Part shown: positions 12,179 to 38,517 of the stretch, in pieces
How the letters are laid out: the number at the start of each line of letters is the position of its first letter
How positions within the stretch are numbered: position 1 is the stretch's first letter
Origin: Escherichia coli
Lineage (GTDB): Bacteria; Pseudomonadota; Gammaproteobacteria; Enterobacterales; Enterobacteriaceae
Direction: 5' to 3' (one strand)
Assembly: GCF_003334305.1 (NCBI RefSeq)
Contig: NZ_QOWS01000001.1
DNA: 64,000 nt
Notes under the pieces: model-generated
Databases searched by the model: none
Told to the model about the DNA's origin: nothing
The model's input: only the letters and a program-made list of their open reading frames with translations
Program-made: the position numbers and the translations under genes

Positions 12179-13615
12179 ATGGCGCAGTCGAAACTCTATC
12201 CAGTTGTGATGGCAGGTGGCTCCGGTAGCCGCTTATGGCCGCTTTCCCGCGTACTTTACCCCAAGCAGTTTTTATGCCTGAAAGGCGATCTCACCATGCT
12301 GCAAACCACCATCTGCCGCCTGAACGGCGTGGAGTGCGAAAGCCCGGTGGTGATTTGCAATGAGCAGCACCGCTTTATTGTCGCGGAACAGCTGCGCCAA
12401 CTGAACAAACTCACCGAGAACATTATTCTCGAACCGGCAGGGCGTAATACTGCACCTGCCATTGCGCTGGCGGCGCTGGCGGCAAAACGTCATAGCCCGG
12501 AGAGCGACCCGTTAATGCTGGTATTGGCGGCGGATCATGTGATTGCCGATGAAGACGCGTTCCGTGCCGCCGTGCGTAATGCCATGCCATATGCCGAAGC
12601 GGGCAAGCTGGTGACCTTCGGCATTGTGCCGGATCTACCAGAAACCGGTTATGGCTATATTCGTCGCGGTGAAGTGTCTGCGGGTGAGCAGGATACGGTG
12701 GCCTTTGAAGTGGCGCAGTTTGTCGAAAAACCAAATCTGGAAACCGCGCAGGCCTATGTGGCAAGCGGCGAATATTACTGGAACAGCGGCATGTTCCTGT
12801 TCCGCGCCGGACGCTATCTCGAAGAACTGAAAAAATATCGCCCGGATATTCTCGATGCCTGCGAAAAAGCGATGAGCGCCGTCGATCCGGATCTCGATTT
12901 TATTCGCGTGGATGAAGAAGCGTTTCTCGCCTGCCCGGAAGAGTCGGTGGATTACGCGGTCATGGAACGTACGGCAGATGCCGTTGTGGTACCGATGGAT
13001 GCGGGCTGGAGCGATGTCGGTTCCTGGTCTTCATTATGGGAGATCAGCGCCCACACCGCCGAGGGCAACGTTTGCCACGGCGATGTAATTAATCACAAAA
13101 CTGAAAACAGCTATGTGTACGCCGAATCTGGCCTGGTCACCACCGTCGGGGTGAAAGATCTGGTGGTGGTGCAGACCAAAGATGCGGTGCTGATTGCCGA
13201 CCGTAACGCGGTGCAGGATGTGAAAAAAGTGGTCGAGCAGATCAAAGCCGATGGTCGCCATGAGCATCGGGTGCATCGCGAAGTCTATCGCCCGTGGGGC
13301 AAATATGACTCTATCGACGCAGGCGACCGCTACCAGGTGAAACGCATCACCGTGAAACCGGGCGAGGGCTTGTCGGTACAGATGCACCATCACCGCGCGG
13401 AACACTGGGTGGTTGTCGCGGGAACGGCAAAAGTCACTATTGACGGTGATATCAAACTGCTTGGTGAAAACGAGTCCATTTATATTCCGCTGGGGGCGAC
13501 GCACTGCCTGGAAAACCCGGGGAAAATTCCGCTCGATTTAATTGAAGTGCGCTCCGGCTCTTATCTCGAAGAGGATGATGTGGTGCGCTTCGCGGATCGC
13601 TACGGACGGGTGTAA
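12179..13615 (+). CDS. cpsB: Mannose-1-phosphate guanylyltransferase (colanic acid copy)
   Basis: 478 aa; N-terminal [11 protein letters not shown] nucleotidyltransferase motif and C-terminal cupin; synteny. Confidence 0.95.
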
Positions 13616-13619
13616 ACGT

Positions 13620-13735
13620 CGCATCAGGCGCTGTTTGTCGGATGCGGCGTGAACGCCTTATCCGACCTACGGTTCGGTTTTGTAGGCCTGATAAGACGCG
13701 GCAGCGTCGCATCAGGCAATGAATGCCGAACCGCG
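13620..13735. repeat. REP/BIME cluster
   Basis: Paired inverted REP-like palindromes (TCGGATGCGGCG...CTTATCCGACCTAC; GTAGGCCTGATAAGACGCG...) in cpsB-cpsG intergenic. Confidence 0.7.
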
Positions 13736-13807
13736 ATGTAAATAACGACAAAAACAAAATTGGCCGCTTCGGTCAGGGCCAACTATTGCCTGAAAAAGGG
13801 TAACGAC

Positions 13808-35624: not shown

Positions 35625-35701
35625 CCTGAAAAAGGCCATTCAACCCGTTGGTCGATTGATTGATAGTAAAATAAAACAATTATTTATTTAAGGATTTCAT
35701 T

Positions 35702-37117
35702 ATGTTACTTCCTGTAATTATGGCTGGTGGTACCGGCAGTCGTCTCTGGCCGATGTCACGCGAGCTTTATCCGAAACAGTTCCTCCGCCTGTTCGGGCAG
35801 AACTCCATGCTGCAGGAAACCATCACCCGACTCTCGGGTCTTGAAATCCATGAACCGATGGTCATCTGTAACGAAGAGCATCGCTTCCTGGTGGCTGAAC
35901 AGCTGCGCCAGCTAAATAAGCTGTCGAATAACATTATACTTGAGCCAGTCGGGCGCAACACCGCGCCGGCCATCGCCCTGGCGGCCCTTCAGGCCACCCG
36001 CTACGGTGACGACCCGCTGATGCTGGTTCTCGCCGCCGACCACATCATCAATAACCAGTCGGCCTTCCACGACGCTATCCGGGTCGCCGAGCAGTATGCT
36101 GATGAAGGTCATCTGGTCACCTTCGGTATCGTGCCGAATGCCCCGGAAACTGGCTACGGTTACATTCAGCGCGGCGTGGCGCTCACCGATAGTGCCCATT
36201 CCGCGTACCAGGTGGCCCGCTTTGTGGAGAAGCCGGATCGCGAGCGCGCCGAGGCTTACCTCGCCTCCGGGGAGTACTACTGGAACAGCGGCATGTTTAT
36301 GTTCCGCGCCAAGAAATACCTCATCGAGCTGGCCAAATACCGTCCGGATATCCTGGAAGCCTGCCAGGCTGCGGTGAATGCCGCCGATAATGGCAGCGAT
36401 TTCATCAATATCCCACATGATATTTTCTGCGAGTGCCCGGATGAGTCCGTGGACTACGCCGTTATGGAGAAAACCGCTGATGCGGTGGTGGTCGGTCTCG
36501 ATGCTGACTGGAGCGACGTTGGCTCCTGGTCCGCACTATGGGAGGTCAGCCCGAAAGACGAGCAGGGCAACGTCCTTAGTGGCGACGCGTGGGTACACAA
36601 CAGCGAAAACTGCTACATCAACAGCGACGAGAAGCTAGTGGCGGCCATTGGCGTAGAGAATCTGGTGATTGTCAGCACTAAGGACGCCGTGCTGGTGATG
36701 AATCGCGAGCGTTCCCAGGACGTGAAGAAGGCGGTCGAGTTCCTCAAGCAGAACCAGCGCAGCGAGTACAAGCGCCACCGTGAGATTTACCGCCCCTGGG
36801 GCCGTTGCGACGTAGTGGTCCAGACCCCGCGCTTCAACGTCAACCGCATCACGGTGAAACCAGGCGGTGCCTTCTCGATGCAGATGCACCACCATCGCGC
36901 CGAGCATTGGGTTATTCTCGCCGGCACCGGTCAGGTGACGGTCAACGGTAAGCAGTTCCTGCTGTCCGAGAACCAGTCCACCTTTATTCCGATTGGCGCC
37001 GAGCACTGCCTGGAAAACCCTGGCTGTATTCCGCTGGAAGTGCTGGAGATCCAGTCGGGGGCGTACCTTGGCGAGGACGACATTATTCGTATTAAAGACC
37101 AGTATGGTCGTTGCTAA
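35702..37117 (+). CDS. manC: Mannose-1-phosphate guanylyltransferase (O-antigen copy)
   Basis: 471 aa; paralogous to cpsB but clearly divergent at DNA level and more GC-rich; [11 protein letters not shown] motif. Confidence 0.93.
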
Positions 37118-37140
37118 TTATTTTCGGGACAAGATGCAGA

Positions 37141-38517
37141 ATGACACAGTTAACTTGTTTTAAGGCTTATGACATCCGTGGTGAACTGGGTGAGGAACTG
37201 AACGAGGACATCGCCTACCGTATCGGTCGCGCCTACGGCGAATTTCTGAAACCCGGGAAGATAGTGGTGGGGGGCGATGTGCGCCTCACAAGCGAGTCGC
37301 TGAAGCTGGCGCTGGCCCGCGGGTTAATGGACGCCGGTACCGACGTGCTGGACATCGGCCTGAGCGGTACCGAAGAGATTTACTTTGCCACCTTCCACCT
37401 TGGGGTAGATGGTGGCATCGAGGTGACCGCGAGCCACAATCCTATGAACTACAACGGCATGAAGCTGGTGCGCGAGAATGCGAAGCCCATCAGCGGCGAC
37501 ACCGGCCTGCGGGATATCCAGCGCCTGGCGGAGGAAAACCAGTTCCCGCCAGTGGACCCGGCGCGTCGCGGGACCCTGAGCAAGATATCGGTACTGAAGG
37601 AGTATGTTGACCATCTGATGAGCTACGTGGACTTCTCGAACTTCACCCGTCCACTGAAGTTGGTGGTGAACTCCGGAAACGGGGCTGCGGGGCACGTGAT
37701 TGATGAGGTGGAGAAACGCTTCGCGGCGGCTGGGGTGCCGGTAACCTTTATCAAGGTGCATCACCAGCCGGATGGCCATTTCCCTAACGGTATCCCGAAT
37801 CCGCTGCTGCCGGAGTGCCGCCAGGATACCGCCGACGCGGTGCGCGAGCATCAGGCAGACATGGGGATTGCCTTTGACGGCGACTTCGATCGCTGCTTCC
37901 TGTTCGATGACGAAGCTTCGTTTATCGAGGGGTATTACATTGTCGGCCTGCTGGCTGAGGCGTTCCTGCAGAAGCAGCCGGGAGCGAAAATCATTCACGA
38001 CCCGCGCTTGACGTGGAACACGGTAGACATCGTGACCCGCAACGGCGGCCAGCCGGTGATGTCGAAGACGGGGCATGCGTTCATCAAGGAGCGGATGCGT
38101 CAGGAAGACGCTATCTACGGCGGGGAGATGAGTGCGCACCATTACTTCCGCGATTTCGCCTACTGCGATAGCGGGATGATCCCGTGGCTGCTGGTGGCGG
38201 AGCTGCTGTGTCTGAAGAACAGCTCGCTGAAATCGCTGGTGGCGGACCGCCAGAGGGCGTTCCCTGCGTCGGGAGAGATCAACCGCAAGCTAAGGAATGC
38301 GGCTGAGGCGATCGCCCGCATCCGGGCGCAGTATGAGCCGGCGGCTGCACACATCGACACAACGGACGGGATCAGTATTGAATACCCTGAATGGCGCTTT
38401 AACCTGCGCACGTCTAACACCGAGCCGGTGGTGCGTCTGAACGTTGAGTCCAGAGCTGATGTGGCGCTTATGAATGAAAAAACGACCGAGCTGTTACACC
38501 TGTTAAGCGGGGAATAA
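37141..38517 (+). CDS. manB: Phosphomannomutase (O-antigen copy)
   Basis: ATG at 37141 ([14 protein letters not shown]) inside ORF 37111..38517, 458 aa; paralogous to cpsG. Confidence 0.93.

Follow-up and report, generated by a model that had tools for sequence, protein, structure and literature searches.

A second, divergent manC/manB pair in an Escherichia coli chromosome segment, probably imported with an O8 polymannan operon from a Klebsiella pneumoniae-like donor

We analyzed a 64,000-nucleotide (nt) stretch of DNA (hereafter "the window") from Escherichia coli (NCBI RefSeq assembly GCF_003334305.1, contig NZ_QOWS01000001.1), which its map of open reading frames (ORFs) and its matches to RefSeq identify as a segment of the E. 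coli chromosome, and which carries two gene pairs for GDP-mannose synthesis, i.e., cpsB/cpsG in the colanic-acid cluster and manC2/manB2 (rfbM/rfbK) at the head of an O8-type O-antigen operon. We consider it very likely that cpsB/cpsG is the resident pair and that manC2/manB2 was imported together with the O8 operon as one block of Klebsiella origin. According to this explanation, the O8 polymannan operon, which is of the ATP-binding cassette (ABC)-transporter type, would have entered an E. coli ancestor as one block of ~13 kb from a K. pneumoniae-like donor; its right end would have been joined through homologous recombination within the 3' end of hisIE, and an illegitimate event would have joined its left end, with the former hisIE tip remaining after wzzB as a scar. 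The imported manC/manB genes would since have drifted from a Klebsiella-like GC content at third codon positions (GC3; ~83%) towards E. coli composition (74%).

The resident pair consists of cpsB, the colanic-acid manC (12179-13615; 478 amino acids, aa), and cpsG, the colanic-acid manB (13808-15178; 456 aa), while the second pair consists of manC2 (35702-37117; 471 aa) and manB2 (37141-38517; 458 aa; "O9 family phosphomannomutase RfbK" in RefSeq). Both pairs are on the plus strand, with the same order and orientation, and are 23.5 kb apart. The ORF limits at 13760 for cpsG and 37111 for manB2 represent upstream TTG extensions; the ATG codons at 13808 and 37141 are the real starts (RefSeq, strain H15). 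Both ManC proteins pass the NCBIfam model TIGR01479 (GMP_PMI, bifunctional mannose-1-phosphate guanylyltransferase/mannose-6-phosphate isomerase; cut-off 372.95 bits) over essentially their full length (CpsB, 811 bits; ManC2, 741 bits), and both ManB proteins pass NF011943 (phosphomannomutase CpsG subfamily; cut-off 801 bits; CpsG, 1050.7 bits; ManB2, 853 bits), as anticipated by a first-pass annotation of the window, which had described two pairs encoding the same two enzymes at these places. In both pairs, ManB would convert mannose-6-phosphate to mannose-1-phosphate and ManC would convert the latter to GDP-mannose, with ManC also carrying a predicted type II phosphomannose isomerase domain. 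As ManC2 scores below the cut-off of the cpsB equivalog model NF012004 (725.8 bits vs. 859 bits) while CpsB passes it (1115.6 bits), ManC2 is the same type of enzyme as CpsB but not the colanic-acid orthologue.

Codon-aligned comparisons showed 62.4% aa and 61.9% nt identity between CpsB and ManC2, and 75.7% aa and 69.1% nt identity between CpsG and ManB2. Identity at third codon positions was 36-43%, i.e., near saturation, and the longest identical run between the pairs was 20 nt. We also searched for conversion tracts and hybrid genes between the pairs and found none; the best 100-nt window reached 76% identity for manC and 89% for manB, where it falls in a conserved stretch of the gene. Overall GC content differed modestly between cpsB/cpsG and manC2/manB2 (55.2% vs. 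58.5%; P = 0.016, chi-square test), while the difference in GC3 was strong (62.0% vs. 74.1%; P = 2e-8). The first-pass annotation had called the pairs clearly divergent at the nucleotide level and the second pair more GC-rich; the former agrees with the pairwise identities, and the latter is real, if modest overall and clear at GC3. Near-identical nucleotide sequences, which the same annotation had named as the observation that would speak against separate origins, were not seen, as no identical run exceeded 20 nt. Because of the 31-38% divergence and the longest identical tract of only 20 nt, recombination between the pairs should be very rare, as the first-pass annotation had reasoned from their divergence, and we infer that it is nearly absent. 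The minimal processing segment reported for recombination in E. coli is ~23-27 nt, and the shared tract of 20 nt falls below this length.

A search with WbdA, one of the polymannan-specific proteins encoded downstream of manB2, showed that its 90% cluster also contains proteins from K. pneumoniae and K. quasipneumoniae, and the loci of both species were then retrieved. Nucleotide identity to the K. pneumoniae O5 locus (L084) was nearly uniform across the operon (manC, 93.1%; manB, 93.5%; wzm, 93.2%; wzt, 94.7%; wbdD, 92.9%; wbdA, 92.6%; wbdB, 92.1%; wbdC, 92.7%), while the eight adjoining his genes showed 78.6-85.3% identity. At third codon positions, the genes of the block were 81-86% identical to this locus and the his genes 53-63%. 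A comparison with the same locus in sliding 300-nt windows yielded a plateau of 90-96% identity from ~35.6 to 47.9 kb of the window and 77-84% beyond it. At the protein level, ManC2 and ManB2 were 97.5% and 97.6% identical, respectively, to their K. pneumoniae O5 counterparts. As block identity is flat from manC to wbdC and then steps down at the his genes, manC2/manB2 share the history of the polymannan-specific genes. The earlier proposal that the O-antigen pair was acquired together with the polymannan cluster is thus borne out by the uniform identity of the block (92.1-94.7%, vs. 78.6-85.3% for the his genes) and by the scars in hisIE described below.

Protein relationships and codon usage point to the same source. 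When one genome per bacterial species was considered, the closest relatives of ManC2 were from Enterobacter sp. 10-1 (96% identity) and Raoultella ornithinolytica (95%), followed by Klebsiella spallanzanii, K. grimontii and K. oxytoca (90%) and K. indica (88%); CpsB was ~62% identical to all of these sequences. Neighbor-joining trees (200 bootstraps) placed ManC2 and ManB2 inside the Klebsiella/Raoultella clade with support of 200/200 and 199/200, respectively, and paired them with K. pneumoniae O5 with support of 156/200 for ManC2 and 193/200 for ManB2. CpsB was separated from ManC2 by a 200/200 split, on the side of sequences from outside the Enterobacterales. Codon usage of manC2/manB2 was correlated more closely with that of the his genes of K. 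pneumoniae (r = 0.93) than with that of the E. coli his genes (r = 0.85). For cpsB/cpsG, correlations of relative synonymous codon usage were r = 0.94 with E. coli his genes, r = 0.94 with the rest of the wca cluster and r = 0.89 with K. pneumoniae his genes. The separate origins that had been suggested for the two pairs are therefore supported by Klebsiella-like codon usage, by tree placement and by the 92-95% identity to K. pneumoniae O5, and the pairs are best regarded as xenologues rather than recent duplicates.

One could hypothesize that manC2/manB2 was recruited apart from the polymannan genes, e.g., from a capsule locus of Klebsiella once the O8 genes were already in place. The composition of the cluster would be in accordance with this, since the GC3 of manC2/manB2 is 74% as compared to 51% for the rest of their own cluster, with a sharp step from 0.75 to 0.54 at the manB2/wzm boundary; moreover, the closest homologues among the species representatives are located in capsule-locus contexts with the order gnd-manC-manB-ugd, and in K. 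oxytoca the pairs of the capsule (K) locus and the O locus are 97-99% identical, so that exchange does happen. However, K. pneumoniae O5 presents the same step in composition (0.845 to 0.513; GC3 of 0.83 for manC/manB and about 0.5 for the rest of its cluster), the divergence from K. pneumoniae is flat over the boundary (93.5% identity for manB, 93.2% for wzm), and the leader upstream of manC2 with its ops element is also Klebsiella-like and contiguous with the block. Separate recruitment therefore appears very unlikely. Because the same composition step is present in Klebsiella, the mosaic of manC/manB and the remaining cluster was, by all appearances, assembled before the transfer.

The junctions of the block were mapped on both sides. 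On the left, positions 33276-34862 of the window align without a break to the ugd-wzzB-hisIE junction of a normal E. coli (L090), up to a point 108 nt into hisIE. A degenerate remnant of the 3' end of the original E. coli hisIE lies on the minus strand after wzzB (34755-34862, approximate limits); its distal part is 75-78% identical to E. coli-type hisIE vs. 21-57% to Klebsiella. Homology to the K. pneumoniae O5 locus starts at 34899, so that the putative Klebsiella-derived block of ~13 kb (34899-47870, plus strand) comprises the leader region, manC2 to wbdC, a spacer and the last ~50 nt of hisIE. On the right, hisIE (47821-48429, minus strand) is intact but chimeric. Its 3' tip (47821-47870) is Klebsiella-like, with 88% identity to K. 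pneumoniae and 70% to E. coli, and the wbdC-hisIE spacer together with this last ~50 nt shows 77-88% identity to K. pneumoniae vs. 47-70% to E. coli; the remainder of the gene is E. coli-like (92-97% identity to E. coli, 78-85% to K. pneumoniae). The crossover thus sits inside the 3' end of hisIE. Upstream of the corresponding block in K. pneumoniae, no his fragment was detected; the alignment there begins only at the uge-manC spacer.

Substitutions in manC/manB were polarised with outgroup copies from Enterobacter and Raoultella. The E. coli branch carried 88 GC-to-AT changes vs. 11 AT-to-GC changes (8:1), while the K. pneumoniae branch showed 16 and 11, respectively; the bias on the E. coli branch would fit amelioration after arrival. 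E. coli is probably the recipient of the block, because the old hisIE tip has been left as a remnant and the intact hisIE carries a Klebsiella tip. The reverse scenario, in which the block moved from E. coli to Klebsiella and manC2/manB2 are old E. coli genes, might draw on the facts that ~93% identity alone gives no direction and that the GC3 of the other block genes (~51%) is nearer to E. coli than to K. pneumoniae. We judge it highly improbable, though, as the displaced E. coli-type hisIE tip is found in E. coli with no his fragment detected at the K. pneumoniae counterpart, the 8:1 bias is confined to the E. coli branch, the codon usage and GC3 of manC2/manB2 fit Klebsiella, related manC-manB-wzm-wzt loci occur in several Klebsiella species, and the his-adjacent site represents the normal O-locus site in Klebsiella but an atypical one in E. 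coli (PMC7685785). The sequence relationships, the block boundaries and the direction of transfer can be regarded as shown.

That manC2/manB2 arose as a duplicate of cpsB/cpsG within the E. coli lineage and diverged in place is hardly credible: the shared enzymes, order, orientation and chromosome arm and the distance of only 23.5 kb would suit a duplication, but ManC2 is 97.5% identical to the K. pneumoniae O5 ManC and 62% identical to CpsB, the 200/200 split between CpsB and ManC2 also sets apart the non-Enterobacterales sequences, identity steps down at the flanking his genes, and a second pair of the O8/O9 type is present in only 655 of 5426 E. coli genomes, as compared to near-universal cpsB/cpsG (4495/5426).

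The imported pair heads an operon in which manC2 and manB2 are followed on the plus strand by wzm (38519-39313), wzt (39313-40527), wbdD (40527-41804), wbdA (41807-45448), wbdB (45512-46657) and wbdC (46667-47782), with wzm and wzt annotated as "O8 family" in the RefSeq annotation of strain H15. The ORFs and this annotation agree on the O8/O5 gene order, manC-manB-wzm-wzt-wbdD-wbdA-wbdB-wbdC, between gnd/ugd/wzz and hisI, and the cluster is collinear with the Klebsiella loci L081, L083 and L084, with the same gene sizes. It also fits the O8 type, which is recognized by a short, methyltransferase-only WbdD and a WbdA of ~1213 aa: WbdD, annotated as a class I S-adenosylmethionine (SAM) methyltransferase, is 425 aa long, and WbdA has 1213 aa and is 94% identical to the K. 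pneumoniae protein. The genes are tightly packed, with -1 to +2 nt between consecutive genes from manB2 to wbdA and with spacers of 23, 63 and 9 nt in front of manB2, wbdB and wbdC, respectively.

Upstream of manC2, a JUMPstart-like hairpin with the ops element GGCGGTAGCGT is located at 35588-35624 (plus strand); the ops 8-mer (GGCGGTAG) is exact and occurs on the coding strand of the 5' leader at 35613, i.e., 89 nt upstream of manC2. Of 11 related loci checked, 8 carried the same hairpin with ops upstream of manC, at a distance of 84-106 nt; it was seen in six Klebsiella loci from five species as well as in Entomohabitans, Pantoea brenneri and Hafnia. Since manC2 heads a tightly packed operon with its own ops/JUMPstart-like leader, its expression would be independent of the colanic-acid operon. 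In K-12, the wca operon is transcribed from an RcsAB-dependent promoter that precedes wza, a position outside the window. GDP-mannose for polymannan is probably made whenever the O-antigen operon is transcribed, without Rcs switching on the colanic-acid operon, and it is reasonable to expect, as the first-pass annotation did, that polymannan synthesis can draw on GDP-mannose from the O8 operon itself, whatever the state of Rcs. Independent transcription, dependence on RfaH and sharing of the GDP-mannose pool by the two pairs are what we infer from this arrangement. Further upstream in the same leader region, an ORF at 35144-35428 ("hypothetical protein" in H15) is probably non-coding, as its translation shows only 58% aa identity to K. 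pneumoniae though the DNA is 81-87% identical; it is followed at 35445-35482 by a near-perfect palindrome resembling a bidirectional terminator, which precedes the ops leader.

Several observations weigh against one part or another of the explanation favored here, i.e., import of the whole operon with an independently expressed pair. The O5-like loci of K. huaxiensis and K. oxytoca (L081/L083) show 77-85% nt identity to the block and are thus no closer to it than the his genes are. By themselves these loci would speak against transfer, a conflict that was resolved once the K. pneumoniae and K. quasipneumoniae loci were included; the case for the donor accordingly rests on the K. pneumoniae/K. 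quasipneumoniae lineage as the donor or a relative of the donor. As the K. oxytoca and K. huaxiensis loci differ from E. coli O8 about as much as the his genes do, the O5-like cluster has apparently long been part of Klebsiella and has apparently diverged there along with the species. In addition, ~7% divergence from K. pneumoniae suggests either that the transfer is old or that the true donor is unsampled. The outgroups used for polarisation are K-locus manC/manB genes, and exchange with O-locus copies in Klebsiella may shorten the Klebsiella branch. For the leader, the Rfam JUMPstart model (RF01707) gave 20.7 bits (E-value = 0.039 over 421 nt) before manC2, short of the gathering score of 35; a search at the gathering threshold returned no JUMPstart there, and the sub-threshold match appeared solely in the short-range search. 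Because of this, the argument from the leader rests on the positional conservation of the ops hairpin. Finally, a scan for consensus promoters in 34500-35750 detected no plus-strand site above background and minus-strand hits only.

Along the window, the leftmost part is occupied by the colanic-acid cluster (wzb, wzc and wcaA to wcaM, including cpsB and cpsG), with the left edge inside the wza end of the cluster; gne and galF come next, followed by an O46/O134 Wzx/Wzy O-antigen cluster (24786-30498; GC ~30%) between galF and gnd, by gnd, ugd and wzzB, by the O8-type cluster and, at the right, by the his operon on the minus strand. The O46/O134 cluster is apparently intact, with wzx and wzy of the O46/O134 family, three glycosyltransferases and an ATP-grasp amidoligase, and is preceded by a JUMPstart element at 24737-24775 (56.7 bits, above the gathering score). 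This chromosome contains two O-antigen clusters, both of them apparently complete and both with an ops element in the leader. Among 5426 complete E. coli genomes, this exact combination of O8 and O46/O134 was found in 8, in one of which (H15) wzy is frameshifted. Six complete genomes, including DETEC-E601, A7 and TUM1887, were 100% identical to positions 24000-48000 of the window over the full length, while the copy in strain H15 was 99.9% identical over the same region and identical in manC2-manB2; sequences 100% or nearly 100% identical to this O8 locus thus occur in several complete genomes. Previously, 46 isolates with both wzm/wzt and wzx/wzy sets have been reported, and in 21 of these the wzm/wzt set was that of O8 (PMC5343136).

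It is tempting to speculate that the cell produces O8 polymannan together with the O46/O134 polymer or in competition with it, giving a mixed or condition-dependent O antigen with neither cluster silent. We regard this as rather unlikely; if true, the self-contained supply of GDP-mannose by manC2/manB2 could allow O8 polymannan to be made besides the O46/O134 polymer. Overall, the locus offers a clean worked example of an O-antigen operon that would have brought its own precursor genes across genera, in which compositional drift and junction scars reveal the probable direction of transfer. For annotators and serotype-prediction tools, it indicates that the two pairs should not be treated as one locus, and it draws attention to a strain type with two O-antigen clusters.

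The resident pair is located between wcaI and wcaJ inside the wca cluster, as judged by ORF order and as read as cpsB/cpsG in the K-12 annotation, with cpsB between wcaI and cpsG. Matches to cpsB/cpsG with at least 80% coverage were present in 4495 of the 5426 complete genomes, with identities mostly of 95-99% (97.1% as compared to K-12). Directly upstream of cpsG, an algC RNA motif (Rfam RF02929) was detected at 13754-13803 on the plus strand (77.3 bits; gathering score 33.8). The motif is absent before manB2, where the manC2-manB2 spacer is just 23 nt, and it was not found in six related loci searched for it as a possible marker of the cpsG lineage. In the cpsB-cpsG spacer, the motif is preceded by repeats resembling repetitive extragenic palindromic (REP) elements. 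Within the colanic-acid cluster, wcaD, wcaE and wcaF (5749-8359) show 44-48% GC and 46-51% GC3, as compared to 53-56% GC in the surrounding cluster. The enterobacterial small RNA STnc240 was identified at 57760-57834 (Rfam, 68 bits; gathering score 55), downstream of the yeeZ/yeeY region.

Two GDP-mannose pairs serving two surface polysaccharides are likewise found in Klebsiella, where a K locus with the order gnd-manC-manB-ugd occurs together with an O locus with the order manC-manB-wzm-wzt. In K. oxytoca NBRC 105695 (L006), the two pairs, belonging to the capsule locus and the O locus, are located at 2573-5378 and 10001-12813 and are thus 7.4 kb apart. These pairs share 98.7% and 96.8% identity and contain exact tracts of 279 and 449 nt, while those in the window show 62% and 69% identity and no tract longer than 20 nt. 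K. oxytoca hence represents, within the donor genus, a case of the near-identity that the first-pass annotation had named as its refutation. The geometry of the window is also known from E. coli O14, where one manB gene of the wca cluster and another of the O-antigen cluster form a direct repeat; the manB genes of O14 are evidently similar enough to recombine, whereas those in the window are 31% divergent and no hybrid was seen. A possible cpsG/manB chimera, suggested by a partial manB hit in E. coli strain XJW9B263 (L089), proved to be a truncation by the insertion sequence IS1 within an O9 cluster rather than a recombinant; this was the one truncated manB examined. At 8287-10044 of that locus, IS1 has eliminated manC along with the 5' portion of manB; the region holds several IS1 copies and an rfbBADC set, and it represents a natural polymannan operon without its own GDP-mannose genes.

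Duplicated rfbM/rfbK genes were reportedly described by Jayaratne et al. in 1994 for E. coli O9:K30. The O8/O9 manC/manB genes, their relationship to Klebsiella and their coexistence with cpsB/cpsG are already known from the literature and from routine annotation; what the mapped junctions and the substitution bias contribute is further detail, not a new claim, and current understanding is unchanged. A published review places the O8 and O9 clusters between gnd and hisI, the site also found in Klebsiella, and takes these loci to reflect lateral transfer (PMC7685785, citing Sugiyama 1998). The wb* clusters of E. coli O8, O9 and O9a and of Klebsiella O5 and O3 share the same gene order and the same site with the cluster in the window (Kido 1995; Sugiyama 1998; PMC7685785). 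As compared to these clusters nothing essential differs, and the locus in the window is an ordinary O8 allele.

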